Of a stretch of 64,000 bases of DNA, positions 14,687 to 46,553 are shown in pieces. Position 1 is the stretch's first letter. Every line of letters starts with the position of its first letter. Below the pieces are notes generated by a model. It did no database searches. It worked only from the letters and a program-made list of their open reading frames with translations, and was not told the origin of the DNA. This stretch comes from Candidatus Babeliales bacterium. GTDB taxonomy: Bacteria > Babelota > Babeliae > Babelales > RVW-14. The stretch covers positions 842-64,841 of the forward strand of contig JBAZSL010000003.1 in the NCBI GenBank assembly GCA_041662445.1, in the 5' to 3' direction. The translations under genes and the position numbers were made by a program.

Positions 14687-14694
14687 TCTTTAGA

Positions 14695-15378: not shown

Positions 15379-15474
15379 AATAAGTCCCTTCTGGTTGTAC
15401 ACCCAGTTCCCACCCCTAAATGTTTGTACTTCTTAATTAACCACGAATAAAATATTGACAAATCAGCTTATTTG

Positions 15475-15502: not shown

Positions 15503-15551
15503 CTAATTTCAAAAAATCAGTTAAAACAGTAAATGAACAAAAAAGCGGTTT

Positions 15552-21722: not shown

Positions 21723-21978
21723 ACGTGTTCCTTCCAAAAACGCTTTGGCAGGCGAAAACTTTTATTATTCAATCTGGAGTTAAGATTATAGCGTAAGGAT
21801 GAAAAGGCTCAAATTGTGCGGAGAAAGCAGCGTTTTTGCCATCTTCGCTTCTGCATTCCACAATTGTATCGATCGAGAGAACCATCCAGGGTGACGGCGT
21901 ATACTCTACAAGATTGAAATTCTTGTTTTATACCGTGTAGGTGGTAGCCTAGCATAAATTACGGAGGCAGTGGTGAAG

Positions 21979-28045: not shown

Positions 28046-29415
28046 TAATAGGGCAGCGTCGCTTTCTGCTGGCGATATTTGTGTTTGCTTTGATCATAAG
28101 GCTAGCCTTATTTTTCGCTTTTTTGCGGCAGGGAACTAATGCATGGTTGCCATTTGATTCTGATCAGTACTATCGTATTGCGCACAACATTGCCGCAGGC
28201 AACGGTATGTGTTTGGTGCCCGGCGAGCCGCAAATGTACCGTCTTCCTGGGTATCCGTTATTTTTGGCGCTGGCGTTACCATTGGGTGGAATTGAACGTG
28301 CGTTACTTTTTCAACTAGTGCTTTCATGTCTCATTCCTATACTCATTTTCTTCCTTGCATTGCAGCTCAAGTTTTCGCTTTCATGTGCGCGCCTGGCTGC
28401 GGTGTTGAGTTGTGTGCATGCCGGTTTGATTACCTATGCTGGTATGGTAGCAACAGAAACATTGTTTCTTGTTTTTTTACTTCTGTTCTTTATTATTTTT
28501 TTACCCTATGTGCGCATGCAGTGGTGTGTGATACCAGTTCATAACTCGATTTATCGTATGATAGGGGCCGGAGTACTTCTTGGCATCGTTTCACTTATTC
28601 GTCCTGTTGGCCATTACCTGGTGATTCTTTCAGTAATCATGCTTATGGTGGGAGCATCAATGCGCGAATGGTTGAGGAACGCCGGTGCGCTTGTTCTTGG
28701 ATGGGGATTATTAGTTGCTCCTTGGGTTGTACGAAATTTTTTTCTTACAGGAGCTTTGCTTTTTCATTCATTGCCCGGGTTGCATTTTCTTCAATATACT
28801 GCCGCATACATCGTTATGGAGCGTGATCATTGTTCGTATGGCGATGCACGTCCGTTGCTTATGCACCAACGTGATGAGGCTATTGCTCAACGCATAGCAC
28901 ACCAGCGGCGGCCACTTACCGAATATGAGGCATGCTGTTGCGCACAAAAGATTGCGACATCATATGTGTATGCATATCCCTGGCTTTTTATAAAAACAGC
29001 ATGCGTGCAAATGCTTAAAACGTGTTGCGGCCTTTATGCCGCACAGCCCTTGATGACTGATGCCTACCGCTGGCCGTCGTATACCTATGCCACAACAACA
29101 TGGACCAAAATAAAACGGTTTCTTTTTCCTGCCGTGCGTCATTGTTGCCTTATTTTTTTTATTTACTACGAACTATTTTTGTGGCTCATGATGATCATTG
29201 GGTTGTGCGGTGCGTGTTTGAGCGCTTTTTACGATAAGACGTTGAGCTGTGCTTTGGCAAAAGCAGCGCCGTATGTGGTGCTGTTGGTTGGTGTTACGTT
29301 GGCGTATGGTTGTGCGCGCTTACGATTACCGGTTGAACCATTTATTATTATTTTTTCAGGAGCTGGGTGGTTATGGTTACGTGGTCGGTGGTTAAAAAAG
29401 AAAAATATTTTCTGA
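28018..29415 (+). CDS. Polytopic GT-C-like glycosyltransferase, family A paralog 2
   Basis: FDSDQYYRIAHNIAAGNGMCLVPGEPQMYRLPGYPLFLA, SLIRPVGHY, WVVRNFFLTGALLFHSLPGLHFL, and C-terminal YGCARLRLPVEP. ATG 28018 overlaps the upstream gene by 28 nt. Confidence 0.65.
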   Translation: MAHAREKNIIIGQRRFLLAIFVFALIIRLALFFAFLRQGTNAWLPFDSDQYYRIAHNIAAGNGMCLVPGEPQMYRLPGYPLFLALALPLGGIERALLFQLVLSCLIPILIFFLALQLKFSLSCARLAAVLSCVHAGLITYAGMVATETLFLVFLLLFFIIFLPYVRMQWCVIPVHNSIYRMIGAGVLLGIVSLIRPVGHYLVILSVIMLMVGASMREWLRNAGALVLGWGLLVAPWVVRNFFLTGALLFHSLPGLHFLQYTAAYIVMERDHCSYGDARPLLMHQRDEAIAQRIAHQRRPLTEYEACCCAQKIATSYVYAYPWLFIKTACVQMLKTCCGLYAAQPLMTDAYRWPSYTYATTTWTKIKRFLFPAVRHCCLIFFIYYELFLWLMMIIGLCGACLSAFYDKTLSCALAKAAPYVVLLVGVTLAYGCARLRLPVEPFIIIFSGAGWLWLRGRWLKKKNIF

Positions 29416-30725
29416 TCCTGTTATTTCTTGCATCGCTTGTTGTTCGTCTTGCTTTTTTCAGCGCGTACACGCGTCATCATATTACCGAAAATCTTGTTTT
29501 TGATGCCGAACAATATCATCATGTTGCCTTACAAATTGCGCATGGTAACGGCATTACCACCAAAGAGGGTACGCCAAATTTTTATCGTCTTCCCGGATAT
29601 CCACTTTTTTTAGGCGCCTGTTATGCCGCCACCAATGATACTGTTGAAACGACCTTATGGGTACAAGTGATACTTGCAAGCATTATTCCCCTTTTGATCT
29701 GGGTGCTGGGCATGGTGATGTTCCCTTCCGTGCCGCTGGTTGCTTGGTTGGCTTCACTCCTTTCGGTGTTTCATCTAGGGTTAGTAATCTATGCGGGCAT
29801 GCTATTGAGCGAATCACTTTTTCTCATTTTTTTTCTTCTCTTTCTCATACTTTTTTTTACGGCGTTGGCAGGTGGTCGATCGTCCATGTGGCTTATGGCA
29901 AGCTCCGGAGTGATCTTGGGTTTTGCGTCACTGATTAGGGCGATAGGCCCTTACGTTATTGCACTATCGTTTATGTTGATTGTTATATGTTGTGCAACAT
30001 GGCGCCTGCGTCTACGTATGATGGCAATACTTGGAAGTAGTTGGCTTCTTGTTGTTGGCATGTGGCTTGTACGTAATTTTCTTTTGACCGGGGCTTTTTT
30101 CTTTCACACGTTGCCCGGCCTTCATTTTTTACAATATTCTGCCGTGTATGTAGTCATGGACCAGGATGATCTCGATTATTTTCAGGCCAAAAAGAAAGTG
30201 TTGTCTGCCTGGGAAAAGATGGTTGAAGATGAAGAACATGCGTTAGGAAAAAAACTTTCTGAGTATGAGCGCTACGCCCGTGCAGAGCGTTTGGCGTTTC
30301 GTATTCTTGCCGCGCATCCACTCAATGCGCTTAAGCATGCCTTCACGCATATTGTGCGTACGTGTGGAACATTAAACTCTACCCTCTTGCTCTATGTGCC
30401 GCGTGGTACTGTTTATGGAAAAGATGCTTCACTGTGGTTCAAAATAAAACTCTATCTTACGCCACGAGTTCTAGACCCGTGGCTGATACCAATTATTTAC
30501 TGGGAACTTGTGTTGTCGTTGTTTATTGTTGTGGGAATGATGGTGGTACTGTTGCGTGCCCTCTGGGATCGCTGTGCGCGCCGCATAGTAGTGATGATTC
30601 TGCCTTTTGTCATACTTTTTGTTGGCATAACGCTTGCGTATGGATGTGCGCGCTTGCGCCTACCCGTCGAACCACTTTTGTTGTTGGGTGCTGTGTATGG
30701 TTGGTTGGGCCTGTTCCAAACGTGA
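29367..30725 (+). CDS. Polytopic GT-C-like glycosyltransferase, family A paralog 3
   Basis: FDAEQYHHVALQIAHGNGITTKEGTPNFYRLPGYPLFLG, WLVRNFLLTGAFFFHTLPGLHFL, and YGCARLRLPVEP. The start overlaps the upstream gene (ATG 29367 or 29373, or GTG 29388). Confidence 0.65.
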   Translation: MVMVTWSVVKKEKYFLILLFLASLVVRLAFFSAYTRHHITENLVFDAEQYHHVALQIAHGNGITTKEGTPNFYRLPGYPLFLGACYAATNDTVETTLWVQVILASIIPLLIWVLGMVMFPSVPLVAWLASLLSVFHLGLVIYAGMLLSESLFLIFFLLFLILFFTALAGGRSSMWLMASSGVILGFASLIRAIGPYVIALSFMLIVICCATWRLRLRMMAILGSSWLLVVGMWLVRNFLLTGAFFFHTLPGLHFLQYSAVYVVMDQDDLDYFQAKKKVLSAWEKMVEDEEHALGKKLSEYERYARAERLAFRILAAHPLNALKHAFTHIVRTCGTLNSTLLLYVPRGTVYGKDASLWFKIKLYLTPRVLDPWLIPIIYWELVLSLFIVVGMMVVLLRALWDRCARRIVVMILPFVILFVGITLAYGCARLRLPVEPLLLLGAVYGWLGLFQT

Positions 30726-32043
30726 CATATTTTTTTTACTCCTGATTTTTGTTGGCGCTTTTTGTGTGCGATTTCTTTTTTTTAAGGCATTTCTTCAGCA
30801 CAATCCTATTCAACTTGCTTACGATTCAGGCCACTATCACACAATTGCCTGTTCGATGGTCCAGGGCAATGGAATAAGCAATCCGGATGGGTCACCGCAT
30901 TTCTATCGCCTTCCGGGATATCCATTGTTTTTGGCTGCATGTTATTGGCTGTGTGGTGGGAGTGTTGAGCGTATGTTGGTGATGCAACAGATACTTGCAA
31001 GTTGCATTCCCCTCCTTGTCTTTGTGCTTTTTCTACAGCTTTTTCCCGGCGCATATGTTGGTGCCTGGGCTGCAGCATGTGTTGCTGCTGTGCATCCAGG
31101 ATTTTTAATTCTTTCGGGTCTTGTTATGTCAGAGACATTATTTGTTTTTTTGTTACTCGCATTTCTGATACTTTTTTTTATCTCATGGAGTCGCCCATAT
31201 GTCGTATCGTATGTCTGCGGTGCTGGTTTCTTACTTGGTATAACATCGCTTGTCCGTCCCGTTGGCGTATGGTTACTGGCACTTTGTATGATGGTACTTT
31301 TATGCCGTCCATTGTGTTGGCGCATGCGATTTTTCCAAGAGCTCTGTTTTTTAGGCATATGGCTTATTCCCGTTGGAGGGTGGGTATTACGTAATTTTTT
31401 GCACACGGGAGTTTTTTTCTTACATACCTTTTCTGGTCCACATCTACTCAACCATGGTGCTGTGCGTGTTACTGCATCTGCTTATCATATTCCCTACGCG
31501 CAGGCACAACGCCGAGTATACGATGATCTACGGGCCAAAAAATCTTTGTCGCGCGAATGGGAATGGTCATCGGCGGTAGAACGTTATGCTCTTATTTGTT
31601 TGATTGAGCATCCCTGGCATGCGTGCAAACTTTGTGGCGTAAATATTTTCAAAACTATTTTTTCCCTGTATGCCTCAGAGCTGTTATGCATTGATTCTGG
31701 CGGAGCATTGCCATCATATGATGCACCGCATAGTTATCAAGAAAAGATACTACGCTTTGTAGCTCCTTCTGTTCACAATAAATGGATTATACCGATGATT
31801 TACGGTGAAATAATACTTCAGGTATTGATACTTCTTGGAGCGTTTGGGTGGTGCGTGATGTCAGTTGTGAATTCGCGTCGCATGACATCGCAACTCTGGA
31901 GCATGTTTGCACTATCATGTATTTTAATTCTTCTCTCTTGTGTGTGCGGCTTTGCTCGATTGCGATTGCCAGTTGAACCGTTTTTCATTATGTTGGCAAT
32001 GTCGTTTTGGAGTGAGCGTATGCATGGGAAGAGAGTAGTATGA
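30697..32043 (+). CDS. Polytopic GT-C-like glycosyltransferase, family A paralog 4
   Basis: YDSGHYHTIACSMVQGNGISNPDGSPHFYRLPGYPLFLA, SLVRPVGVW, WVLRNFLHTGVFFLHTFSGPHLL, and GFARLRLPVEP. The ORF opens at TTG 30634; ATG 30697 overlaps the upstream gene by 29 nt. Confidence 0.65.
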   Translation: MVGWACSKRDIFFLLLIFVGAFCVRFLFFKAFLQHNPIQLAYDSGHYHTIACSMVQGNGISNPDGSPHFYRLPGYPLFLAACYWLCGGSVERMLVMQQILASCIPLLVFVLFLQLFPGAYVGAWAAACVAAVHPGFLILSGLVMSETLFVFLLLAFLILFFISWSRPYVVSYVCGAGFLLGITSLVRPVGVWLLALCMMVLLCRPLCWRMRFFQELCFLGIWLIPVGGWVLRNFLHTGVFFLHTFSGPHLLNHGAVRVTASAYHIPYAQAQRRVYDDLRAKKSLSREWEWSSAVERYALICLIEHPWHACKLCGVNIFKTIFSLYASELLCIDSGGALPSYDAPHSYQEKILRFVAPSVHNKWIIPMIYGEIILQVLILLGAFGWCVMSVVNSRRMTSQLWSMFALSCILILLSCVCGFARLRLPVEPFFIMLAMSFWSERMHGKRVV

Positions 32044-33479
32044 AAACTAACGCAAAAAAGGAAGCGCTTATCATTGGCTCAGGGCCGGCAGGGCTTACCG
32101 CTGCACTTGAACTTGCACGATCTGAAAAGCTCAGAGTGCTTGTTGTTGAAAAAGAAAATGTGGTTGGTGGGCTTGCTAAAACTATCGAATACAAAAGATG
32201 CCGTTTCGATATTGGTCCGCATCATTACCTTACTGAATCAGCTAAAGTATTGCAGTGGTGGCGTGAGCGTATGAAAGATGACTTTCATATGTATAAGCGC
32301 TTTACGCGCATCTACTATAAGAAAAAATTTTTTAACTACCCGCTCGAACCGCTCAACGTTATCAAAGGACTCAGCTTTGCCGAATGTCTGCGTTGTGTTG
32401 CCAGTTATCTTAAGGTGCGCATTTTTCCGATTCGTCGTGTAAAATCGTTTCAAGATTGGGTAACCAATAAATTTGGCCGTCGTCTTTATTCAATGTTTTT
32501 TAAAACGTATACAGAAAAATTATGGGGTATTCCTTGTACCACACTTTCAGCAGATTGGGCATCCCAACGCATCAAAGGATTTTCTCTTTTCCATGCAATT
32601 TTTTATGCCTTTTTTGGTCGTTGGTTTATCAATAAGCCGCGTACCATTCGTGATACGTTTTACTATCCATCACGTGGTTCTGGTACCTTGTGGGAACATG
32701 CTGCCCTTGAGCTCCAAAATTATGATAAGGCACGAGTTCTTTTGCGGACCGAGGTTGTTGCAATAGAACATGCCGAGCATGAAATCACTGCGGTATGGGT
32801 ACGTACTATTTCCTCCGCTAAGGGTGCAGCGTCAACTCTTAAACATCATGGAATTGATTATCTTATCTCGTCTATGCCCTTACGGCATTTTGTTTTATCA
32901 ATGGATCCGCTTCCACCTGAAGCAGTTGTCAACGCTGCGCAAGCTCTTCGTTATCGCGGATTGATTATCATTAATCTTATCGTCAACAAAGTTTCGATAT
33001 GTCCTGATCATTGGTTGTATATACATGACAAGGATGTTGCGATGGTGCGTTTGGATAACATGAATAATTTTTCCCTGCGTCTTGTCGATGATGCAACAAC
33101 ACACACAACATTATGTCTTGAATATTTTGCATGGCCCGATGATAGCGAATGGAAAATGGCTGACAAGGATCTTGTTAAACGTGGCGCTGAAGAGCTGGAA
33201 AAAATTGGTCTTGCTCATGCATCCGATGTTATTGATGGTACGGTGGTGCGTGTTGGTGAGGCATATCCGGTTTACGATGAGGGATATGATCAGCACGTTC
33301 AGGTAGTGCGTTCGTATTTAGCACAATTTCGTAATCTTCATCTTGTAGGGCGTAATGCATTGCACCAATACAATAATATGGATACAGCAATGCTTACCGC
33401 GTTTGATGCTGTTGACAAAATTCTTGCTGAACAACCACAGCCGGTAGCGCAACCATCCTCATTATCATCTCTCACGTAA
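32040..33479 (+). CDS. FAD/NAD(P)-binding oxidoreductase of the HemY/amine-oxidase/UDP-galactopyranose-mutase-like superfamily
   Basis: N-terminal dinucleotide fold ALIIGSGPAGLTAALELAR...VVEKENVVGGLAKT. The C-terminal VGRNALHQYNNMDTAMLTAF resembles the GR..Y.Y.NMD tail of Glf-like enzymes. ATGA overlap with the upstream gene. Confidence 0.7.
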   Translation: MKTNAKKEALIIGSGPAGLTAALELARSEKLRVLVVEKENVVGGLAKTIEYKRCRFDIGPHHYLTESAKVLQWWRERMKDDFHMYKRFTRIYYKKKFFNYPLEPLNVIKGLSFAECLRCVASYLKVRIFPIRRVKSFQDWVTNKFGRRLYSMFFKTYTEKLWGIPCTTLSADWASQRIKGFSLFHAIFYAFFGRWFINKPRTIRDTFYYPSRGSGTLWEHAALELQNYDKARVLLRTEVVAIEHAEHEITAVWVRTISSAKGAASTLKHHGIDYLISSMPLRHFVLSMDPLPPEAVVNAAQALRYRGLIIINLIVNKVSICPDHWLYIHDKDVAMVRLDNMNNFSLRLVDDATTHTTLCLEYFAWPDDSEWKMADKDLVKRGAEELEKIGLAHASDVIDGTVVRVGEAYPVYDEGYDQHVQVVRSYLAQFRNLHLVGRNALHQYNNMDTAMLTAFDAVDKILAEQPQPVAQPSSLSSLT

Positions 33480-33488
33480 CGGGTAATT

Positions 33489-35444
33489 ATGTGTGGAATT
33501 GCAGGATTTTATAATCTTGGTCGCAGCAATTTTTTTGTACATGAGTTGTTGCTTATGCGTATGCAACAGCGTCTTGTTCATCGTGGGCCTGATGCTGGTG
33601 GTATATGGAAATCCCAAGAGCACGGACTCGGTCTTACTTCACGCCGGCTCAAAATTATTGATCTATCTGACGCCGGCAATCAGCCGTTTTATCACAAAGA
33701 TCACAATATTGTGCTGTGTTATAACGGTGAAATTTATAACTATCAAGTGTTGCGTACGCAACTAGAGCAACTGGGCTATCGATTCACATCAACTTCTGAT
33801 ACCGAGGTAATTGTAAACGCCTACCACGCGTGGGGAATCGACTGCTTATCGCGCTTTGAAGGCATGTTCGCCATTGCGCTCTTTGATTGCGCACGCAAAA
33901 AGAGTTATCTCGTGCGTGATCGTATGGGCGTCAAACCGCTCTATTTTTCACTTCAGGGCGGGGTGCTGAGTTTTGCATCTGAGATTAAAGCCTTATGGGA
34001 ACTGCCGTGGATTGAAAAAAAGTTTAGTAACAACGCCCTGTATCACTATCTCACGTTTATGGTTGCGCCAGCACCCTGGACCATTTTTGACGGTATCTAT
34101 AAACTGCCCGCCGGATTTTATCTTGCTGTTGACGACCAGCGACGTGTATCATTTCACGAATGGTATAATCCGCTTACGTCATTAAGCGTGTCAGAAAAAA
34201 AAGAATATAATTCAGAGCCTTTCTGCCGTGAACGCATTAGAAATTTGTTAGTTGATTCAGTTAATAAACGCATGGTGGCCGATGTTCCGGTTGCCGCGTA
34301 TCTTTCAGGTGGGCTTGATTCAAGTTTGATTGTTGCATTAATGGCGCGATCTTCGTCAAACATTGCCACGTTTACCGTTGCTTTTGATGATGATGAGAAT
34401 GATGAGCGTTCCTGGGCGCGACGCGTTGCGTCTCGTTACGGAACCGATCATCATGAAATTGTTATTACTGAGCGAGATGCCTTTGATTATTACCATCGTA
34501 TGGTGCCAGCACTTGATGAGCCGCTTGCCGATTGCGTGTGCATTCCCTTTTATTATGTTTCTCAGCTTGCTCATGACCATGGTATTAAAGTGGCACAAGT
34601 TGGGGAGGGGGCTGATGAACTTTTCTTTGGGTATGCATCATACCTACGTTATGCACGTATGATGCAACGCATGGATCGCCTAGTGCCGCCATTGCCAATG
34701 ATGATGCGTTTGGGTATTGCTCGGTCGCTTTCCCCCTTGATGCGTGGCCGGCCGTTGCGGTCTGAATTTGTCGATAATTGGCGACATGGGCGCGTGCAAT
34801 TTTGGGGCGGTGCTCTTGCCTTTGGTGAAATGCAAAAGCATAAGATTCGTGATTTTTTTGCCGACCGTTCTCCTGTGTATGATCCAATTATTGAACAAAT
34901 ATATCCCGGTATGCGACAAGATTTTGATAGCTATGCGATTGTTGATTATCACCGTTCGCGTCTTATGCAGCTTGATCCAGAAGCTGATATGGGAAAGCAG
35001 ATGCTTTATCTTGAGCTCAAACAGCGTCTTCCCGAGTTGTTGCTGATGCGTGCGGATAAAATGTCGATGGCAGCAAGCGTAGAAGCTCGTGAGCCGTATC
35101 TTGATCACAAATTAGTTGAGTGCATGCTCAATATTCCATGGCACATTCGTTGCCGTGAGGAGCAGCCAAAATATCTTCTGAAAAAAGTTGCCGAAGAGTT
35201 TCTTCCCAATGACATTGTGTATCGTCCTAAGGTCGGTTTTGCAGCTCCTACATACCGCTGGATTGAGAAGGGAACCTTCTTTAAACCATATTTTGAAAAT
35301 CTTGCGCATGATGTCGATAGTATTACCGGTCACCATGGTTGGTTGGGTGCGGTTCTGGCAGAGGATAATAAAAATGTCATGCACCGTGCGGTGCAGAATT
35401 GGACGTTGCAACAGATGTGGGCTTTTATGCGGACAATGGCGTGA
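33489..35444 (+). CDS. asnB: Asparagine synthase (glutamine-hydrolysing)-type amidotransferase
   Basis: Ntn Cys at position 2 (MCGIAGFY). PP-loop AAYLSGGLDSS. 651 aa. Sits in a glycan-locus context. Confidence 0.9.
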   Translation: MCGIAGFYNLGRSNFFVHELLLMRMQQRLVHRGPDAGGIWKSQEHGLGLTSRRLKIIDLSDAGNQPFYHKDHNIVLCYNGEIYNYQVLRTQLEQLGYRFTSTSDTEVIVNAYHAWGIDCLSRFEGMFAIALFDCARKKSYLVRDRMGVKPLYFSLQGGVLSFASEIKALWELPWIEKKFSNNALYHYLTFMVAPAPWTIFDGIYKLPAGFYLAVDDQRRVSFHEWYNPLTSLSVSEKKEYNSEPFCRERIRNLLVDSVNKRMVADVPVAAYLSGGLDSSLIVALMARSSSNIATFTVAFDDDENDERSWARRVASRYGTDHHEIVITERDAFDYYHRMVPALDEPLADCVCIPFYYVSQLAHDHGIKVAQVGEGADELFFGYASYLRYARMMQRMDRLVPPLPMMMRLGIARSLSPLMRGRPLRSEFVDNWRHGRVQFWGGALAFGEMQKHKIRDFFADRSPVYDPIIEQIYPGMRQDFDSYAIVDYHRSRLMQLDPEADMGKQMLYLELKQRLPELLLMRADKMSMAASVEAREPYLDHKLVECMLNIPWHIRCREEQPKYLLKKVAEEFLPNDIVYRPKVGFAAPTYRWIEKGTFFKPYFENLAHDVDSITGHHGWLGAVLAEDNKNVMHRAVQNWTLQQMWAFMRTMA

Positions 35445-35446
35445 CC

Positions 35447-36775
35447 ATGGACTGCTTCAATCGCAATTTCTACGCTTGCCTGCTTGCCTGCGTCGTATTT
35501 TCTCTTTTCTCGTGGTTCCTGTATTGCCAGGTATCCCCCACGCATCCACATTGTGATATTGATTCCAAAGCCTATCTTGAACGCGGATTTTTATGTGCGC
35601 AAACAGGAAGGTTTGTTACGGCAACAAGTCCAGAGCAGCCTTATTATGCTCTTGGGTATGCGGGCATCATCGGCCTTCTCTATCATATTTTTTGGCCATC
35701 CCCTGTGCTTATTATTCTCTTGCAGCTTCTTCTTGCCTGTATGTCATGCTTCATTATGATGCGCTGTGCGCGACTGCTTTTTGGCATGCGTGCCGCAGGA
35801 TGGGTGGCGTTCTTTTTTGCCGTGAGTCTTGGGTATCTTGTTTTTGTGCAATTTGTGTTGACCGAAATTGTGTTGTCGTTTTTTCTTTTACTTTCTTTTG
35901 AGCGGCTTGTGACGTGGATAACATTTCATGGTGCGTCGTTATGTCCACTTGCAACTGCCGCACTGGCTCTTGGCCTTTCAATTGCCATTAAACCAGCAGC
36001 TCTTTATAGCGTCTTTATACTTGCACCACTTATTGGATATGTTGCCGGTACATGGCGACAACGTTTAATCCGTAGTGTGGTATTTGCCCTCTGCTTTTAT
36101 ATTCCCGTTGTGGGGTACATGACCTACAACTATCATGCATTTGGTAATTTTTGCGTGAGTACACTTGATCGCGTTAATGTGTATTACTGGTTTTTTCCCA
36201 ATGTGCTTGCACATCTTCATGGCACGACATCAGATGCTGAGCGGTTGTCGCTTCTTGCGCGTTCGCAGGGTACACATAATTTTGCCGCGGTTGAAAATCT
36301 TTTTTGGCAAAGCCTGCGTGATAATCCATGGATTTTTATATATGTGTGGATCAAAAATGTTCTCAAAACATTTGCCGGCCTTTATACCACCAATCTTAAA
36401 GTGCTCATTGCGCCATCGGTGCATGGCATAGGTGTTTCGTTTTTTAAAACGTCGGGCACACTGATCACGCGTGTGTGGTCATACATTGCTGCAGGAGCTC
36501 CCGCCCCATGGGTAATCATCATAGGGTGTTGTGAGGCAGTGTTGTCATTGTTGCGCTATTTCTTGTGTCTTATAGCACTTGTAGGTCTTATACGATGTAA
36601 AAAAATAGTGCCGGTGGCGTTGTGCTGTGCATACATTGTCTATTTTTCGCTCATTACCGGGCATGATGGTTGTGCTCGATTCCGTATGATGTTTGAATTT
36701 TTGCTCATCATTCTTGCCGCTGGCGGATGGTCAATGATGATGAACCCGGCGGGGGACGTATGCAACGAAAGGTGA
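35447..36775 (+). CDS. Polytopic GT-C-like membrane protein, family C
   Basis: About 12 TM helices. First-loop acidic motif HCDIDSKAYLERGFLCAQTGRF...PEQPYYALGY. The ORF opens at 35399 inside asnB; ATG 35447 lies 2 nt after the asnB stop. Confidence 0.5.
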   Translation: MDCFNRNFYACLLACVVFSLFSWFLYCQVSPTHPHCDIDSKAYLERGFLCAQTGRFVTATSPEQPYYALGYAGIIGLLYHIFWPSPVLIILLQLLLACMSCFIMMRCARLLFGMRAAGWVAFFFAVSLGYLVFVQFVLTEIVLSFFLLLSFERLVTWITFHGASLCPLATAALALGLSIAIKPAALYSVFILAPLIGYVAGTWRQRLIRSVVFALCFYIPVVGYMTYNYHAFGNFCVSTLDRVNVYYWFFPNVLAHLHGTTSDAERLSLLARSQGTHNFAAVENLFWQSLRDNPWIFIYVWIKNVLKTFAGLYTTNLKVLIAPSVHGIGVSFFKTSGTLITRVWSYIAAGAPAPWVIIIGCCEAVLSLLRYFLCLIALVGLIRCKKIVPVALCCAYIVYFSLITGHDGCARFRMMFEFLLIILAAGGWSMMMNPAGDVCNER

Positions 36776-36779
36776 TGGT

Positions 36780-37853
36780 ATGAAAGATATTTATTGTGTC
36801 ATTCTTGCAGGCGGAGCAGGAGAGCGATTGTGGCCTCTCAGCTCATATGTGCGCCCCAAACAACTTATTCCTTTCATTAATGGCTCATCGCTGCTTGAAC
36901 AAACAGTGCAACGTGTTCAAGCGGTTGTAAAAAATAAAAATCATCTTATGGTGATGACCCATGCTGAATTGCAGGAACCTATCAAAAAAATGGTTGGTAA
37001 GCAGGCTACTGTTTTTACTGAGCCGGTAGGGCGCAACACTGGTTCAGCAATACTTTTAAGTTGTCTTGAAATTTACGACAAAAACGAAGATGCAGTTGTC
37101 GTTGTTATGCCATCCGATCATTTTATTCCCGAGTACGAGAAATTTTCCTCATTACTCTTAGCGGCTGCTGCGTTTGCTTCATGTTACGATCAACTTGTGT
37201 TGTTAGGTATCAAGCCGACAACGCCAGCAACTGGTTATGGATATGTGCGCTACAAAACTGAGCTTATGCCGGGATGGGCATGTTTTCCCGTACAAAAGTT
37301 CCACGAAAAGCCTGATAAAGAGCAGGCGCAACGGTATCTTGAACAGGGCGACATGCTGTGGAACAGCGGCATCTTTGTTGGGCGGGTTAAAGTTTTTCTT
37401 GATCAATTTCAGCTATGGGCGCCCGAGCTTTGGAGCGCCGTTGCCGCCTATCGCGCTAACCAATGCGCCTATGATCAGGTGCCCTCTATTTCCATTGATC
37501 ACGCGGTACTTGAAAAAAGCGATAAGATCGTGATTTTTCCTGCGCATTTTGAATGGCACGATGTTGGCACCTTGCCAACATTTTTGATGCTCAAAGCACA
37601 ACATGAGAAAGAATCTACTGCAACTAAGGTTATCAATGTTGATGCGACCAATAACATGGCATGCGCTATAAAAAAGGTTGTCGCATTTGTTGGCGTTGAT
37701 AATCTGTGCGTAGTCGAAACCGATGAAGCGCTCTTGGTTGTTGCGCATGATCGTGTTGAGTCTGTGCGCGATGTGTCATCAATTTTAAAGACCAAGGAGA
37801 GCAAAGATGCTGGTCGTTCAAAGAGCTCGCTGGCGACGGAGGATTCTTTGTAG
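36780..37853 (+). CDS. manC: Mannose-1-phosphate guanylyltransferase (nucleotidyltransferase domain only)
   Basis: VILAGGAGERLWPLSSYVRPKQLIPF matches the ManC/CpsB N-terminal signature. Also GYGYV and WNSGIFV. Confidence 0.85.
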   Translation: MKDIYCVILAGGAGERLWPLSSYVRPKQLIPFINGSSLLEQTVQRVQAVVKNKNHLMVMTHAELQEPIKKMVGKQATVFTEPVGRNTGSAILLSCLEIYDKNEDAVVVVMPSDHFIPEYEKFSSLLLAAAAFASCYDQLVLLGIKPTTPATGYGYVRYKTELMPGWACFPVQKFHEKPDKEQAQRYLEQGDMLWNSGIFVGRVKVFLDQFQLWAPELWSAVAAYRANQCAYDQVPSISIDHAVLEKSDKIVIFPAHFEWHDVGTLPTFLMLKAQHEKESTATKVINVDATNNMACAIKKVVAFVGVDNLCVVETDEALLVVAHDRVESVRDVSSILKTKESKDAGRSKSSLATEDSL

Positions 37854-39699: not shown

Positions 39700-39794
39700 C
39701 CTTATTCACAGAATTCTTCCCTTTTCTGCATGTAGTTGGATACGATCTACGATAGAGATTGTGGGTACCGGGTTTTTTAGGAAGGGGGACGTCC

Positions 39795-40523
39795 ATGAAT
39801 AAGATCGATAGATTTCTGGACAGCATCGACTGCATCATCGAAAAAAAAATTTCGCCGCTGTGGAAGTTTGTACAAAAATATTTTGTTATATTTAGCAGCA
39901 CGCTCTTAGCATTTTTACTGCTTATCTTCTTTCTCAAGATCTATCAAGATACATCTTCGGTGCGCGTTTCGGTCATGCGAGAGGATCTTGAAGTTTTGCA
40001 GCAACTGCTCAATCGCATTGATAAAGAGTGCAACATTCTCAGCATACGTTCCAAGGGTGCCGACCTTGATTTTTTTACCGTCGAAAAGTTTGTTGGTTCC
40101 ACGGTCGGCTGTCTCAATCTTGCTTACCCCAAAAACTGGCACGGGCCTTATGTGCAGCAAGATCCAACTATGGATGGAAAATTTTATGAGATAATCCATG
40201 CGCGTGATGGATATTTCATCGTTCCTGGCCAGGGAGTTCGGCTTCCCAATGACATGGTGATGGGTAAAGATGTGAAGGTTTCAGATAAAGTACACATTGG
40301 CGATTTGATCAAAGCAGGGGGTGCTCTTAATTACAAGGGACGAGCGCTTGGGATAAAGTTGGATTTTAAAATTGGCGATTGGGATTCCCGTCCTCCAAAA
40401 GTTGATACAACCAAAGTTCCCGTCGAAAAGTTTGAAAAGACCAGCAAGATTATTCAAGAATTCCAAGCTGCGTTGCCATATACCCAACGGCATGCGGCGC
40501 AGAGTGAGACAAAAGCGGGATAA
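39795..40523 (+). CDS. Hypothetical membrane-anchored protein (weak pseudopilin-like segment)
   Basis: ATG 39795 follows an AGGGGGA SD. One N-terminal TM (FVIFSSTLLAFLLLIFFL). NWHGPYVQQDPTMDGKFYEI faintly recalls the GspG-type W.GPY...DPWG..Y, but there is no prepilin G-F-T-L-x-E site. Confidence 0.4.
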   Translation: MNKIDRFLDSIDCIIEKKISPLWKFVQKYFVIFSSTLLAFLLLIFFLKIYQDTSSVRVSVMREDLEVLQQLLNRIDKECNILSIRSKGADLDFFTVEKFVGSTVGCLNLAYPKNWHGPYVQQDPTMDGKFYEIIHARDGYFIVPGQGVRLPNDMVMGKDVKVSDKVHIGDLIKAGGALNYKGRALGIKLDFKIGDWDSRPPKVDTTKVPVEKFEKTSKIIQEFQAALPYTQRHAAQSETKAG

Positions 40524-40668: not shown

Positions 40669-41205
40669 ATGAATGAGCAGAAACAATTTGTTATTCCGTC
40701 ATCACTTCGTCGTAGCCCAAAAAACATTTGGTCGGGGTTTGCTTTTTCGACTATTGCACAGGTGATGGTGTTTGGCTGGTTCTCGCTTTTTAGTACGTAT
40801 CCAGTTTTTCGTGGTGCTGGGTGTTGGTATGTCCTTGCGATCATGGTTGGGGTTTCATTGGTAAACAATATTCTACTGCTACGCAAAGCTGCACCGACTG
40901 CAATTTTTGATGCGACGGGCATTACCGTAAAAGATTTTGGGCTTATTCCCTGGGAAAATATCGAAAAAGTTGCGCTCTATGCACTACCGTTTATGAAGAG
41001 CTTTAAGTTCGTGGGCATACGATGTAAAGATGTTGCTACGGTACGTGCTCAGGCATCATGGGCAGGCAAGCTCAATCTCTTGCGCCCCAAACTTTTTGGC
41101 GATTATCACCTTGCGCTTGCGCATACTCATGCCGTGAGTAATACAGAAATCGTGCTTTTTGCTCAGCACTATCAAGAAGTGCATGCACAATCTAAACTCG
41201 CGTAA
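40669..41205 (+). CDS. Two-TM membrane protein with a C-terminal bacterial-PH-like domain (P-family member 1, most divergent)
   Basis: Two N-terminal TM helices, then IFDATGITVKDFGLIPWENIEKV ... SNTEIVLFAQHYQEVH. The pattern is shared with the next three genes. Confidence 0.5.
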   Translation: MNEQKQFVIPSSLRRSPKNIWSGFAFSTIAQVMVFGWFSLFSTYPVFRGAGCWYVLAIMVGVSLVNNILLLRKAAPTAIFDATGITVKDFGLIPWENIEKVALYALPFMKSFKFVGIRCKDVATVRAQASWAGKLNLLRPKLFGDYHLALAHTHAVSNTEIVLFAQHYQEVHAQSKLA

Positions 41206-41310
41206 AAAAAATCAGTAAATTCAGTGATTATTACATATCGTTCTTGTTTCTGTTCCCAAAACGTAGTACCCTTTGCGCGTTGTTTTAAAACAAACCGTGA
41301 AAGGTTTTTT

Positions 41311-42045
41311 ATGGAATACTCGTCGGCGTTGCTGAAAAAAATTATTGCATTATCGCTTTTATGCGCCACCAGCGCACCAGCCGTTTCTGCAACCACAGTG
41401 ACTGCAGGCGGTGATCCGTATGTGTTGGAATTTGCGCGCACGTATAGCGATCACGTTGAATTTGTGAGTGACGCTAATGGTTGCGGCAAGCTTACGTTGT
41501 ATGCCAATCCAATTACACTAAAAATAATTTTAAAGATACTTGTAGGATTGGGAGCTTGTGCTGCTGGAGGCGTTAGAATTTCTCGTGGTTGGAGCGGATT
41601 AGACAGGCATGGTGGGAATTTGGGGCTTATTGATAGAGTAGTACATGGCGCGCTTGGCGCAGCTGGTTGTGGTCTTGGCCTTTGGTCCCTTCTTGATGGC
41701 ATAGGTGATTTGTCTCTTAAGAAAAATAAAGTTCCTTATATTACCTTGGATGCCGATGGTCTGACACGTTGGAATAGTGCGCATATGAAATGGTCTGATG
41801 CTGATCATAGCGATATTACGACACGTCAGGAGACAACGAGCACTACGAATCATTGGACTGAGGATATATCGACAACAACTGGGACGACGAAAACGATACG
41901 AACATTTCACCTCTATGACAAATATAATAGTGATCTTTTTTCGATCTCTGATAATGATTTCTATTTGTCCGTATCATTTGACCAGCTCCGTGCGCTTATC
42001 GAACATTATATGGCGTGCCATGGCCGACAAGCGTTGCATCACTAA
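41311..42045 (+). CDS. P-family member 2: signal peptide, Gly-rich TM pair, conserved C-terminal domain
   Basis: MEYSSALLKKIIALSLLCATSAPAVSA; LTLYANP; VPYITLDADGLTRWNSAHMKWSDADH; YLSVSFDQLRALIEHYMACHGR. The ORF opens at GTG 41224. Confidence 0.5.
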   Translation: MEYSSALLKKIIALSLLCATSAPAVSATTVTAGGDPYVLEFARTYSDHVEFVSDANGCGKLTLYANPITLKIILKILVGLGACAAGGVRISRGWSGLDRHGGNLGLIDRVVHGALGAAGCGLGLWSLLDGIGDLSLKKNKVPYITLDADGLTRWNSAHMKWSDADHSDITTRQETTSTTNHWTEDISTTTGTTKTIRTFHLYDKYNSDLFSISDNDFYLSVSFDQLRALIEHYMACHGRQALHH

Positions 42046-42075
42046 ACAAAACTTTTAATAAAGAAAGTGAGTTTC

Positions 42076-42720
42076 ATGATATCAAAATCACGTGTGTTAC
42101 TGCGATTGGTGAGTGGTTTTTTACTGCTCCAGGGGATTGGCGAGAGTGCATCTGCACATTCTTGTGCCATCGCCGGCGACGCCTTTATCCAAGACTTTTG
42201 TTCTCATAATGAGAGCGTTGCATCCTCCACAAATGGTGCGCTTACGCTTTATGCACATCCAAACAAGATGGTGGCAGCAGCCATCAAGGCAGTTGTCGCG
42301 GCAGCCGCTGTTGGAGGGGTAGTAGCGACTACGTGCTATTGTCTTTCGGATGGGCAAGAAGCTGGTTCTCCTGCGGGAGATGCGAATTCATCAGCGGGAA
42401 AAAAAATTGTGGGACTTGTGCTTGCTGGTATTGCGAGCGGATGGCTCAGCGCAGGTCTGCTCGTATCGGCGTGGGATGATTATGTGGCAAAAAACGATAA
42501 AAAGCCGTACGTGATTTTGGATTCTGTAGGCATTACTCATTGTTCCAATGGGACGCATTTCAAATGGAGTGATTTTGATTACATTGAGGGTTCGCCGCTC
42601 TACATCAAGGGGAGCAACATTTCCCTTGAGTCTGTCTATGGCGATGATCCTGATTTGCCAGTACCATTGAATCAACTTTGCGACCTTGCCAGGCACTACA
42701 TAGCGGTTTATGGAAAATAA
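42076..42720 (+). CDS. P-family member 3
   Basis: Signal peptide MISKSRVLLRLVSGFLLLQGIGESASA; LTLYAHP; KPYVILDSVGITHCSNGTHFKWSDFDY; LPVPLNQLCDLARHYIAVYGK. The ORF opens at GTG 42067. Confidence 0.5.
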   Translation: MISKSRVLLRLVSGFLLLQGIGESASAHSCAIAGDAFIQDFCSHNESVASSTNGALTLYAHPNKMVAAAIKAVVAAAAVGGVVATTCYCLSDGQEAGSPAGDANSSAGKKIVGLVLAGIASGWLSAGLLVSAWDDYVAKNDKKPYVILDSVGITHCSNGTHFKWSDFDYIEGSPLYIKGSNISLESVYGDDPDLPVPLNQLCDLARHYIAVYGK

Positions 42721-42745
42721 AGAAAGTAAAAACGAGGGAGTAGCA

Positions 42746-45700
42746 ATGATGCTGCATACACATAAGAAATTTACCCACACATTATTATTTGTTACAGCGC
42801 TTCTATTTTCGGGAGCGCCACATCTTTTTGGCGATACTGCTGCCAGTCAACCAGCTCGGGCTGATGCCCAGATCGAAAGTTTTTCGCGCGCTGCGTGGAG
42901 TAATTATGTTGCATATAAAGATGGCAAACTCATTTTGTATGCACGGTTATGTAATGAGTGCATTAACGACAAAGGGTTATTAGCGGGCGTCTCCTTTGCA
43001 GGGGGAATTGCCTGTGCCTCTTGTGCTCTTATGTCTCATGATCACCCGGCCCAGATTTGGGGGGGGATTTTTGGTACAGCTTTATGTGCTCTTGGTGCCT
43101 ATGAAGCGCGGGAATTTTTTAGAAGTCTTGCTCAGGGTGCTGCCAAGGTTCCCTATATCACATTCGATAAAGATGGCTTGACGTTGTATACCAAACGTTG
43201 TTGTGCATGGAAGGACGTCCATACAAACTCGGTATCCTATGTATGTCGAAGCGCAGACGGCACATTGAAATCGACTAAAAAATTAATGTTTGTTGGTACG
43301 CACAAAGATGTTGTTTGTGAAATTTGTAGCGACGATATATATCTACCCATATCATTCAACGAGTTGGAAGCGATTATTCAGTACTATATGGATACCTACG
43401 GTAGAGATATAACGCTGATCGAAGCGTGCAAAAAGAATGATGTGGAGGCTGTCAAAAAACTTATTGCTGCCAAAGCTGATGTCAATCAAAAAGATCCTGC
43501 TGGAGAAACGCCACTTACATGGGCTGCGTATCGTGGTTACGAAGAGATAGTCAGATTGCTTCTTGATGCACATGCTGATGTCAATCAAAAAGATCCTGTG
43601 GGAGAAACACCGCTTACATGGGCTGCATACTATGGTTACGATGGGATAGTCCGACTACTTCTTGATGCACGTGCTGATGTAAACGCACCAAATAAAAGGG
43701 GCGCTACGCCACTGCGGCTTGCAGCAGGGAACTGCCATGATGATTGTGTACACACGTTGCTCCACGCCAACGCGAAAGTTGATATCTGCGATCAAGAAGG
43801 CAATACAGCTCTAAATTTTGCAGCATGGAAGGGGCATGTACGTGTCGTGCGGATGCTTCTTGATGCACATGCTAACATTGAAATACGTAATAACGATGGC
43901 TTTACCGCACTAATGTCGGCTGCAGATGCTGAGCATGCCGAGGTTGTTAGGTTGTTGCTGGCAGCACATGCTGATGTAAATGTAAAAGACCAAAATGGAA
44001 GAACAGCGCTTAGTCTTGCTGCATGGCGTGGATATGCCGATATCGTTACTCTTTTATTGAGTGCACATCCACAGATAGATGCGCAAAATAAATGGGGCGA
44101 GACAGCGCTTCTTCGCGCTACGGCTCAGAGCCATACCGAAGTTGTTAAGGCGCTTCTTGCCGCGCATGCAAATCCGGATATACAAAATCAGTACGGGGAA
44201 ACAGTGCTGACTCTTGCGGCAGGCCGAGATTATCGTAATATTGTCGAATTTCTTCTTGATGCACATGCGGATGTCAACGTGCAGGCAGAAAATGGAAATA
44301 CACCATTGTTGCTGGCGGCTAGCTGGGGATATACAGATGTTGTTAAGCTTCTTCTTGCAGCAGATGCTGATTGTTCATTGGTGAATAAAGAGGGAAAAAC
44401 AGCCCTCGATTATGCTGCCAATGATGAAATCAGAGAACTTATTCGTCAGCATGTTGCACAAAATACTACGGCTGCCGAACATGCTCCAACTCTAACACCA
44501 CTGATAATCGCATGCTACCTGGGTAATATCACCGAAGTGAAAAAGCTTCTCGCGACCACCATCGATGTGAATCAAAAGAATGCTGACGGTAATACAGCGC
44601 TTATAGCGGCGACCGGCCAGGGCTATGCCGAAATCGTCAAATTACTTCTTGCGGCTGGTGCGAATCCGGATATACAGAATAATGAAGGCAAAGACACCGC
44701 TCTTACGATAGCTGCAAAGCTTGGGTACACAACTATTGTTCAGTTGCTTCTTGCGGCGAAGGCTGACGTTACTATTAAAAACAAGAATGGGCAGACAGCA
44801 AAAGATTGTGCGTCAACCGACCACAGCAGAGCGCTTATTCGTCAGTATACTGTGCACAATGCTACGAATATCAAAACAAATGATGAGGTTTCTCCCAGCC
44901 AAACATCTTCCGGAATGGACACAACGCCCCTAATTGATGCCTGCGAGAAGGGCAATATTACAGAGGTTCAACGGCTTCTTGCTACAGGCGTTAATCTTGA
45001 CCAGAAAGATTCTATAGATGAAACGGCACTTATGGGTGCTGTGCAAAAAGGGCATGCTGAAGTTGTTAAACTACTTCTTGCTGCACACGCAGATCTAAAT
45101 ATACAGAACTCTGAAGGAAACACCGCGCTCATGCTAGCCGTTCATATGCGGTGTTCTACGATTGTTGGCCTGCTACTTGCGGCGCATGCAAATTCAAATA
45201 TACGCAATAAAAAAGGGGAGTGGCTTACTGAAGCATTCGGGACACGGGTAAGGATTCAGAATGAGGATACGCCACTTATTGCCGCTGCATGCTTGGGATA
45301 TGCCGATATCGTTGAGCTTCTTCTTGCCTCAAATTCCGATATTAATGCAAAAAACAATAACGAGATGACGGCGCTTATGTGTGCTTCTCAAGCGGGGAAA
45401 AGCGACGTAGTTAAGCTTTTGTTAGCTGCCCATTCACCAATTGATGATCAAAATAAATGGGGATACACAGCATTGTATTATGCAACTGTTGCTGGTCGCG
45501 CGGAGATTGTAAAATTGCTTCTTGGCGCAGGCGCAAACCCCAATATACAGGATGTGTATGGAGATACGGCTCTCAAAAAAGCTGCGGGACTTGGGCATAT
45601 TGATATTGTTAAGCTTTTTCTTGCTGCACATGCCGACGGATCACTGAAGAATAAAATTGGTGCTACTGCAGCACGGTGCGCGGCAACCGATGAGATTGCA

Positions 45701-46330
45701 AATCTTATTCTCCAACATAATGCAAAAAATGATTCCACAATATCACCCCAAGAGCAACGCTCTGATAATCAACCAGAGAAGATTGCTTCATTTTTTGAAG
45801 CGTGCCAAAAAGGTGATGCTGTTGCAGTTAAACAGTTTCTTGCTGCCGGTGCTAATGTTAATCAGCAAGGTCCTTTTGGGCTCACCGCGCTTATGATGGC
45901 TGCTTTTCAAGGACATACCGAAATCGTTCAACTACTTCTTGCAGCGGGGGCAAATCATGACATTTTGGCTCCGAATGGAGTATCTGCGCTTATGGCTGCT
46001 GCGTGCTGTGGGTACGGCGACATTGTTAAATTACTTATTGATGCTCATGCAGACGTTAATATACAGGCAAAGAATGGTGCGACGGCACTCTCGCTTGCTG
46101 CTGGTTATGGATACATTACCGTTGTTAAACAGCTTCTCGCGGCAAATGCCAGTTATGAAATGTATAATGGAGATGACGACCTAATGATAGTACAACCAGC
46201 TAATAGAGAAATTGCCGAACTTATTTGTAAACATGGGTTCAAAGATTCGAGTTATCGGTGGTATGTCGATGACAACGATCATCTCCAATGGACGCTTGTC
46301 ATCCCATTCCCCGAAAGCCCAACGACATAA
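42746..46330 (+). CDS. P-family N-terminal module fused to ~28 ankyrin repeats in four capped blocks
   Basis: N-terminus: LILYARL, two Gly/Cys-rich TM helices, VPYITFDKDGLTLYTKRCCAWKDV, YLPISFNELEAIIQYYMDTYGRD. Then canonical ANK units (G.TALxxAAxxGHxxVVKLLLxAGAxxN). ATG 42746 follows a GAGGGAG SD; the ORF opens at 42710. Confidence 0.9.
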   Translation: MMLHTHKKFTHTLLFVTALLFSGAPHLFGDTAASQPARADAQIESFSRAAWSNYVAYKDGKLILYARLCNECINDKGLLAGVSFAGGIACASCALMSHDHPAQIWGGIFGTALCALGAYEAREFFRSLAQGAAKVPYITFDKDGLTLYTKRCCAWKDVHTNSVSYVCRSADGTLKSTKKLMFVGTHKDVVCEICSDDIYLPISFNELEAIIQYYMDTYGRDITLIEACKKNDVEAVKKLIAAKADVNQKDPAGETPLTWAAYRGYEEIVRLLLDAHADVNQKDPVGETPLTWAAYYGYDGIVRLLLDARADVNAPNKRGATPLRLAAGNCHDDCVHTLLHANAKVDICDQEGNTALNFAAWKGHVRVVRMLLDAHANIEIRNNDGFTALMSAADAEHAEVVRLLLAAHADVNVKDQNGRTALSLAAWRGYADIVTLLLSAHPQIDAQNKWGETALLRATAQSHTEVVKALLAAHANPDIQNQYGETVLTLAAGRDYRNIVEFLLDAHADVNVQAENGNTPLLLAASWGYTDVVKLLLAADADCSLVNKEGKTALDYAANDEIRELIRQHVAQNTTAAEHAPTLTPLIIACYLGNITEVKKLLATTIDVNQKNADGNTALIAATGQGYAEIVKLLLAAGANPDIQNNEGKDTALTIAAKLGYTTIVQLLLAAKADVTIKNKNGQTAKDCASTDHSRALIRQYTVHNATNIKTNDEVSPSQTSSGMDTTPLIDACEKGNITEVQRLLATGVNLDQKDSIDETALMGAVQKGHAEVVKLLLAAHADLNIQNSEGNTALMLAVHMRCSTIVGLLLAAHANSNIRNKKGEWLTEAFGTRVRIQNEDTPLIAAACLGYADIVELLLASNSDINAKNNNEMTALMCASQAGKSDVVKLLLAAHSPIDDQNKWGYTALYYATVAGRAEIVKLLLGAGANPNIQDVYGDTALKKAAGLGHIDIVKLFLAAHADGSLKNKIGATAARCAATDEIANLILQHNAKNDSTISPQEQRSDNQPEKIASFFEACQKGDAVAVKQFLAAGANVNQQGPFGLTALMMAAFQGHTEIVQLLLAAGANHDILAPNGVSALMAAACCGYGDIVKLLIDAHADVNIQAKNGATALSLAAGYGYITVVKQLLAANASYEMYNGDDDLMIVQPANREIAELICKHGFKDSSYRWYVDDNDHLQWTLVIPFPESPTT
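43475..43672 (+). repeat. Tandem 99-nt (one ANK unit) duplication with high nucleotide identity
   Basis: 43475-43573 and 43574-43672 both read GCTGATGTCAATCAAAAAGATCCTG.GGAGAAAC.CC.CTTACATGGGCTGC.TA... They are far more similar to each other than to the other ANK units. Confidence 0.8.
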
Positions 46331-46553
46331 CTGAACTCTTGCCCCCCACCATCCCCTGGCGACGCATAGATAAACATTGGCGTGCACATGCTTACCCATT
46401 TCGGTTGTAGTAACACCATATATCGCTTTTCTATACCCTTGTTTGTTAAAATCATAATCACATGCTTTATCGCCAACGCATCATGAGCTCATTGTTTTGT
46501 GGGGTGACGGTGAAAAAAGATTAGTGAACATTCAGGGGGGCGGCACATTATCG

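Follow-up and report, generated by a model that had tools for sequence, protein, structure and literature searches.

In the Dependentiae, signal-peptide-bearing ankyrin proteins make up a large share of small genomes, and the question of where such proteins are destined is raised by a locus in a Candidatus Babeliales bacterium, in which a giant ankyrin (ANK) protein is encoded directly after a run of small putative membrane proteins. The window considered here is the whole stretch of 64,000 nucleotides that was analysed (assembly GCA_041662445.1, contig JBAZSL010000003.1, positions 842 to 64,841 of the forward strand), and the locus comprises four consecutive plus-strand open reading frames (ORFs), P1 to P4, at positions 40669-46330. 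A first-pass annotation had described these as four tandem paralogs of an uncharacterised membrane-anchored domain, with the last one fused to an ankyrin array. P2, P3 and the N-terminal part of P4 are clear paralogs that belong to a real and largely undescribed module family, hosted by an order of uncultured bacteria that parasitise amoebae and protists, and this module has several times become the anchor of ANK or Sel1 proteins. With regard to function, the module is proposed to be Sec-exported, hairpin-anchored and probably oligomerising, acting as a display module for envelope or host-interface proteins, a reading to which a probability of about one half is assigned. Since such a module lies between a signal peptide and a repeat array, membrane tethering is predicted, which offers a testable handle on the destination of Dependentiae ANK proteins.

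Paralogy Among P2, P3 and P4

Complete copies of the module are carried by P2 (41311-42045, + strand, 244 aa), P3 (42067-42720, + strand, 217 aa in the ORF list) and the N-terminal part of P4, termed P4N (42710-43420, + strand, aa 1-225 if the Met at 42746 is taken as residue 1). Whole-module BLASTP comparisons matched P2 to P4N with an E value of 2e-18, P2 to P3 with 3e-9 and P3 to P4N with 5e-4. When the domains alone were compared, leaving out the transmembrane (TM) helices, the same pairs gave E values of 1e-16, 5e-10 and 7e-5, so the similarity among the three is not due to TM composition. A profile hidden Markov model (HMM) of the family recovers P3 at E 1.2e-39 and P4N at E 6.5e-60. That these are unrelated small membrane ORFs, alike only through TM or low-complexity content, might be suggested by the weak match of P3 to P4N over the whole length and by the pairwise BLAST comparisons of P1 with P2-P4, none of which is significant (E 0.04-1.7). 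Such an artefact is nevertheless refuted by the domain-only values together with conservation across the family, in which 94 clusters match over their full length with conserved non-TM motifs; purifying selection and syntenic orthologs in a related locus, L001, speak against it as well, and it is barely credible.

P1 (40669-41205, + strand, 178 aa in the ORF list) stands further away. A shallow profile comparison with 11 sequences reached a probability of only 37.8%. An hhalign comparison of the P1 family with the 83-sequence family alignment gave 94.3% (E 1.1e-7); in it, residues 66-175 of P1 fall on module positions 135-237, in register with the domain. Likewise, when the family HMM was run on all six-frame ORFs of the window and the related loci, P1 (E 2.7e-5) and two relatives in L001 (up to E 1.7e-4) were the sole non-members below E 0.01, the next match being at E 0.1. 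Together with the match of P1 and the family to one and the same NCBIfam model (see below), these comparisons make P1 a remote relative, and only of that part of the module which runs from the TM helices, chiefly the second, through the domain. The claim of four tandem paralogs thus stands for P2-P4, with P1 reduced to a distant relation. A word-index homolog search with the P4 module (42746-43420) returned no match, not even P4 itself. The collection searched does contain P2 of the same metagenome-assembled genome (MAG), whereas P4 may be absent or may have been called differently.

The four genes are closely spaced, with 105 bp between P1 and P2, 21 bp between P2 and P3, and an 11-bp overlap between P3 and P4, and they look co-transcribed; a scan of the locus for promoter and terminator consensus sequences was uninformative. 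The ORF of P2 was listed from 41224, and its true start is at 41311; the resulting 244-aa protein is 100% identical to a MAG hypothetical protein of Candidatus Babeliales bacterium (NCBI WC630_01340), which places the window in a MAG of the Dependentiae (TM6).

A Module Family of the Babeliales

P2, P3 and P4N were combined with three close homologs into a family profile. Among 1.84 billion cluster representatives, this profile matched 94 clusters at E<=1e-3 and 45 at E<=1e-10, nearly all of them 200-290 aa long and matched from end to end. The shared and duplicated membrane-associated module that had been proposed for this locus is thus present, and forms a lineage-specific family. All members bearing a source name come from Candidatus Babeliales. 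A degenerate DNA motif of the family was scanned over one genome per GTDB species and then over metagenome contigs. The first scan gave three matches, against about 2.5 expected by chance on our own estimate, of which the sole real one lies in a Babeliales MAG (HMM E 1.8e-62); the second gave five, two being real family members and the others chance. None was found in viral contigs, and a locus search with alignment A2 over genome, viral and metagenome contigs returned nothing. As far as the data reach, the family is therefore restricted to Babeliales. When P1-P4, the P1 family and the 83 members were scanned with Pfam, no family was matched consistently, and these proteins, for which Pfam has no model, could be described there as a new family.

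Members share a fixed layout, in which a signal-like segment is followed by an N-terminal element of about 40 aa (the N-element, a helix and a beta-hairpin), two TM helices rich in Gly, Ala, Ser and Cys (TM-A and TM-B), and a beta-rich domain of 75-110 aa closed by a C-terminal helix. Exactly three hydrophobic segments precede the domain in 65 of 70 members, and the hydrophobic hairpin has two lobes, with a loop of 15 aa (median) between them. Three signatures are conserved: D.[FY][IV]..F[VA] ... V.Y...G.L.LYA.PS, [VI]PY[IL]T[LF]D..G[LI]x9W.D[VI] and D..LP[IV]S[FY][DE]..[LF]..L..HY...YG[KN]. The motifs first noticed in the window, now written as L.LYA.P, [VI]PY[IL]T[LF]D..G[LI]x9W.D and LP[IV]S[FY][DE]..L..HY...YG, are accordingly real family signatures. 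In one further member (P0099, 323 aa), a complete module is followed in the same ORF by the start of a second one (N-element and TM-A) up to the end of the sequence, which is either an internal tandem duplication or the product of a truncated contig.

In P2, the signal-like segment covers aa 1-26, with a putative cleavage context ..APAVSA|TT, and the N-element covers aa 33-67, a helix and a beta-hairpin that bears GKLTLYANP. These are followed by TM-A (aa 70-95), TM-B (aa 106-135), the beta domain (aa 140-213) and the C-terminal helix (aa 223-237). An AlphaFold2 (AF2) model of P2, with a mean predicted confidence (pLDDT) of 70.7, shows a signal helix, a helix at 36-44, strands at 49-53 and 59-64, helices at 70-95 and 106-135, six strands and the C-terminal helix at 223-237. 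In P3, TM-A lies at about aa 68-93, TM-B at about aa 114-135 and the domain at aa 144-217; this is the shortest domain among the modules, with a long hairpin insertion missing. P4N has a signal-like segment, an N-element with GKLILYAR, TM-A at aa 76-96, TM-B at aa 101-120 and the domain at aa 133-222. P1 was delineated from hydropathy as a lysine/arginine (K/R)-rich N-terminus, TM1 (aa 23-41), TM2 (aa 53-71) and a C-terminal domain (aa 72-178), and its AF2 model was unusable (pLDDT 44.7). The description of a signal or TM region with an LYA motif at the N-terminus of every copy does not hold, as P1 has neither signal peptide nor N-terminal LYA element, and in the AF2 model of P2 the motif sits in the beta-hairpin just ahead of the first TM helix and not in the signal region. 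Inside the C-terminal domain of P1, the segment KVALYALPF (aa 100-108, 40966-40992) resembles KLTLYANP of P2 (aa 60-67, 41488-41511) at a non-significant BLAST E value of 0.19, and duplication of a domain strand might have given rise to the N-element.

Relation to Two-TM Proteins With Pleckstrin-Like Domains

The STM3941 family (NCBIfam NF041635, STM3941_fam) is the only library family matched consistently, with hits from 32 of 83 members, all below its cut-off of 40 bits; no other NCBIfam family matched more than one of the 83. The best member (P0038) scored 38.3 bits (E 1.2e-9), its residues 63-160 aligning to positions 2-100 of the 157 in the model, a match that takes in both TM helices and the domain's first half. 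P1 scored 26.5 bits (E 4.9e-6, residues 25-130 to model positions 14-116) and its L001 paralog was matched at 3.7e-4. P1 also has the STM3941-type architecture of about 160 aa with two TM helices and a small C-terminal domain, and a homolog 92% identical to it carries the JGI label "membrane protein YdbS with pleckstrin-like domain". The label and the STM3941_fam match bear out the early suggestion that P1 resembles the two-TM bacterial pleckstrin homology (PH) proteins. P1 is the more canonical, signal-less copy of this type; P2-P4 hold the same architecture and add to it the signal and the N-element. Compared with the STM3941 family, the Babeliales family has in addition a signal-like segment and a conserved N-element of about 40 aa; its domain is often enlarged by a long hairpin insertion, and some members carry an ANK or Sel1 cargo.

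The families DUF304, DUF1200 and DUF2244 have been described as membrane-anchored, beta1-less bacterial PH-like families, in which six strands and a terminal helix follow two TM helices (PMC2817789), and for which oligomerisation into rings has been proposed (Xu et al., 2010; PMC2817789). The order of elements in the P2 model is the one given for these families (PMC2817789). From the first TM helix to the end, P2-P4 may therefore be regarded as a divergent protein of the "two TM helices + small PH-like domain" type, with the PH-like fold predicted from this model, and the nearest known kin are the STM3941 family and the bacterial PH-like two-TM proteins. Like the module, bPH_2/DUF304 proteins (YdbS/YdbT, COG3402) and those of DUF1200 and DUF2244 have two TM helices directly before a beta domain of about 80-100 aa with a C-terminal helix. 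The known bPH proteins, unlike the module, have no signal peptide, so that their domain is cytoplasmic, and the orientation of the module is predicted to be inverted. Fusions to ANK or Sel1 are not known from that family. The type of bacterial protein with two TM helices and a PH-like domain would be extended here in three respects, namely the predicted inversion of its orientation, the extra element at the N-terminus and the fusion to cargo.

Sequence-profile searches of the PDB gave nothing meaningful, the best matches being a designed protein and the p85 SH2 domain (E>=0.02), and a Foldseek search of the PDB with the P2 model had no significant hit and retrieved no PH-like structure. The word "uncharacterised" in the first-pass annotation is supported insofar as no Pfam or PDB match was found; the domain is not wholly an orphan, being a divergent branch of the named STM3941 family. 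As that family is itself uncharacterised, the domain has not been assigned to a well-characterised one.

Cargo Fusions and Dynamics of the Locus

P4 (42710-46330, + strand) encodes 1206 aa, or 1194 aa from the Met at 42746, and consists, as first described, of a module whose remainder is made of ANK repeats. The array (43421-46330, about 970 aa) begins immediately past the C-terminal helix of the module domain, at about residue 226-236, and lies above the Pfam thresholds for ankyrin repeats, with an Ank_2 match of E 5.7e-163 (530 bits), 23 PF00023 stretches and a 33-residue register; no ANK repeats were found by Pfam in P1-P3. About four cassettes can be distinguished (aa 226-570, 580-700, 725-995 and 1010-1165), each of which closes with a conserved cap, (D/T)EI..LI..H. 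The statement that the module was fused once to such a scaffold does not stand, because a module with ANK occurs in three further representative clusters (P0013, P0044 and P0056, of 910, 715 and 522 aa), two of which adjoin each other on one contig (L006), and a module with Sel1 in one cluster (P0096, 402 aa, from a Babeliales MAG). About 90% of the family members are without cargo domain.

Tandem arrays of the module are found at several loci. In L001, two genes of the P1 type stand together with six of the module type; L002 carries two of the module type; L006/L007 combine two plain module genes with the two adjacent ANK fusions; and two module genes each are found in L008 and in L009, which comes from a low-GC, distant lineage. 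By blastn, the window and L001 are about 90% identical in the flanks and 82-87% identical within the array, where a second P1 paralog, two module genes and the body of a 428-aa gene of the signal-plus-ANK type are all missing from the window. The breakpoint lies at window positions 42804-42834, and the L001 counterparts on its two sides are the 428-aa ANK-only gene (11433-12719) and a 605-aa gene with module and ANK (12752-14569). The P4 of the window is therefore a recombinant that starts with the signal segment donated by the ANK-only gene and continues as the module-plus-ANK gene. It follows from this exchange that the N-termini of these two genes are interchangeable. P4 has also gained one repeat of 99 bp and about 1.66 kb of ANK cassettes (44680-46342) with no counterpart in L001. 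Since the cap that closes the cassettes also ends stand-alone ANK proteins, in-frame concatenation of neighbouring ANK genes is suggested as the origin of the P4 array.

The ratio of nonsynonymous to synonymous substitution rates (dN/dS) against L001 is 0.54 for P2, 0.28 for P3, 0.27 for the P4 module and 0.19 for P1, and 0.07-0.21 for neighbouring genes. The module genes are thus real and constrained, evolving fast in comparison with their neighbours, and with values below 1 they are ruled out as pseudogenes. Tandem duplication and unequal recombination are the routes by which the family diversifies, and its pace of evolution exceeds that of the genes around it.

Export, Orientation and Proposed Function

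Signal features were predicted by eye and from hydropathy, with K/R residues followed by a hydrophobic core and AxA-like sites at AVSA|T in P2, ASA|H in P3 and ARA|D in P4. No lipobox is present, which rules out a lipoprotein. By these predictions, the N-terminal segment is consistent with export. In Chromulinavorax, signal peptides have been reported on 78% of the ANK proteins, with Sec as the proposed route (PMC6561590), and the TM6 core genome includes components of Sec and of type II secretion (PMC4776705). The export of the module is supported both by this proportion in Chromulinavorax (PMC6561590) and by the fact that the signal segment of an ANK-only protein serves P4.

According to the favoured proposal, the N-terminal segment would engage Sec, after which the hairpin of two TM helices would anchor the module. 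As the number of TM helices after the signal segment is even, both the N-element and the C-terminal domain would come to lie on the trans side of the inner membrane, in the periplasm or cell envelope. In P4, the ANK array would be on the same side as the domain. The domain of P1 would instead face the cytoplasm, because P1 has no signal and a basic N-terminus. By analogy with the ring-forming bacterial PH domains the module probably oligomerises, and it would tether itself, or a protein-binding ANK or Sel1 scaffold at its C-terminus, at the envelope of the parasite or the interface with its host. The closest parallels within the phylum are the signal-bearing ANK proteins of Dependentiae such as Chromulinavorax and Babela, which likewise combine large ANK arrays with an N-terminal signal (PMC6561590, PMC4776705). 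In contrast to proteins with only signal and ANK, P4 has the TM hairpin and the PH-like domain in between, which predicts anchoring and not free secretion. The first-pass suggestion of effectors aimed at the surface or a host membrane, with a common anchoring or secretion determinant, is thus partly supported: an anchoring module repeatedly fused to scaffolds is borne out, and effector status, host targeting and a role in secretion are putative.

Several observations weigh against this proposal. The inter-helix loop has about as many K/R residues (2.1) as the segment just past TM-B (2.4), so the positive-inside rule gives no confirmation that the domain is outside. The helices are only marginally hydrophobic, with a median summed apparent free energy of insertion (dGapp) of +1.5 kcal/mol and values below 0 in about 15% of members on a crude scale, and stable anchoring in the inner membrane is for this reason not certain. 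A periplasmic ankyrin array would have no obvious partner, and the sequence analysis gives no sign of host contact. As for the kinship, the 40-bit cut-off of STM3941_fam is reached by no member, P2, P3 and P4N do not match that family at E<=10, and no Pfam bPH family (including bPH_2, PF03703) was matched even at E<=10.

In a different orientation, the proteins would be cytoplasm-facing inner-membrane proteins of the YdbS/YdbT/STM3941 kind, acting in envelope stress, in export of small molecules or peptides, or in immunity. The N-terminal segment would then be no working export signal, the domain and the ANK part of P4 would be cytoplasmic, and the fusions would be incidental recombination products in an ANK-rich genome. 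Such an arrangement would agree with P1, the nearest canonical relative, which is signal-less with a K/R-rich N-terminus and a domain predicted to be cytoplasmic, and with a K/R cluster that follows TM-B in most members (columns 136-140), the K/R counts not favouring "outside". Membrane proteins with bPH domains have been implicated in bacteriocin export and resistance (PMC8657885); tandem small membrane proteins are typical of immunity genes, and a CdiI-like gene lies a few kb away from the array in L006. However, the third N-terminal hydrophobic segment after K/R residues is kept in 65 of the 70 members and is interchangeable with the signal segment of an ANK-only protein, the ANK and Sel1 fusions recur across several clusters, and in Pfam and NCBIfam scans none of the genes flanking the window's array was recognised as encoding a toxin or bacteriocin. 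A cytoplasmic orientation is for these reasons considered unlikely.

The marginal hydrophobicity of the hairpin, with its two lobes and median loop of 15 aa, could also be taken as a property of released effectors. In this case, after Sec export, the hairpin would escape stable insertion in the inner membrane, and the protein would leave the cell by type II secretion or in outer-membrane vesicles and place its hairpin in a host membrane, with the ANK or Sel1 part directed towards the host cytosol, as in chlamydial Inc proteins or type IV TM effectors. Such release would suit the eukaryote-type cargo domains, the faster evolution of the modules relative to their neighbours, the confinement of the family to an order of obligate intracellular parasites, and the vesicles and signal-bearing ANK proteins described in Chromulinavorax (PMC6561590). 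A weak structural likeness of the hairpin to the membrane-inserting heads of the AhlB/SmhB pore-forming toxins was returned by Foldseek with a probability of 0.8-0.9; at E>1 it is not significant and is not relied on. The hydrophobicity estimate is crude, though, no evidence of release or host contact was obtained, about 90% of members carry no cargo, and the STM3941 and bPH-type relatives are ordinary bacterial inner-membrane proteins, so that release is regarded as rather improbable.

The comparison with chlamydial Inc proteins and type III-IV TM effectors is one of functional analogy, since a bilobed hairpin of modest hydrophobicity is combined with host-type domains in an obligate intracellular bacterium in both cases. 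No sequence relationship exists, and the module proteins carry predicted Sec-type signals. The Inc proteins and TM effectors depend on type III or IV secretion; these systems have not been reported in Dependentiae, the TM6 core having Sec and type II components (PMC4776705). A bolder proposal, which must be considered a long shot, would treat the module as a Sec-dependent device for delivery and anchoring, equivalent to Inc-like hairpin effectors with a new export logic, by which ANK and Sel1 scaffolds would be carried to the host-facing membrane. The scaffolds might be carried out by the weakly hydrophobic hairpin in concert with a PH-like domain that forms rings and is completed in trans by the beta-hairpin of the N-element. 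The anchored display module proposed above remains the favoured interpretation.

Neighbouring Genes

The array is followed in the window by a gene for an AAA ATPase (46497-48065, + strand, Pfam AAA 6.5e-25) with a signal- or TM-like N-terminus, a long coiled coil, a TM helix and a single classical AAA domain (aa 283-428), to which the closest PDB sequences are of the Cdc48/p97 D1 type, with FtsH AAA domains also close. An AAA ATPase likewise lies downstream of the array in L001 (14801-16312) and between the plain and the ANK-fused module genes in L006/L007 (L006 3938-5476). In the delivery scheme, this neighbouring membrane ATPase might extract or hand over hairpin proteins, although a link to their handling is pure speculation. 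Immediately upstream of the arrays, a protein of 242-254 aa with one N-terminal TM helix is encoded in the window (39759-40523, + strand), L001, L002 (as a fragment), L006 and the contig of P0007, and the window copy may belong to the same gene cluster as the array. It has no Pfam or NCBIfam match, and a resemblance to GspG-type pseudopilins, seen by eye in a C-terminal YPKNW.GPY...D..G.FY, has no Pfam support even at E<=10. As these genomes may simply be related, the linkage of these neighbours is not proof of a functional tie.

The region from 39.7 to 52 kb of the window forms an island in which lineage-specific ORFans encode exported or membrane proteins. A second tandem family of paralogs is found there in three copies, 46-52% identical to one another (49114-49965, 50119-50922 and 50992-51882, all + strand), and also in L001 (17245-18096). 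Each begins with a signal-like stretch, continues with a conserved soluble domain (ACYGPN..IEF..NE.F.PA.LG.L.LYKDG.GFHVI) and ends in a hydrophobic region rich in Gly and Ala; neither Pfam nor NCBIfam has a match for the family. An IS200-type Y1 transposase is encoded where the island borders on other genes in L001 (19426-19866). In L006, the stretch beyond the ANK fusions (13181-19177) encodes on the opposite strand a CdiI_ImmP-like immunity protein, an 807-aa ORFan and two pentapeptide-repeat proteins. Upstream of the island in the window, large genes form a long same-strand run (21970-37853, + strand), with an asparagine synthase-like gene (33489-35444) and a gene for a sugar nucleotidyltransferase (36780-37853) at its end; the run may serve the biosynthesis of glycans or of the envelope.

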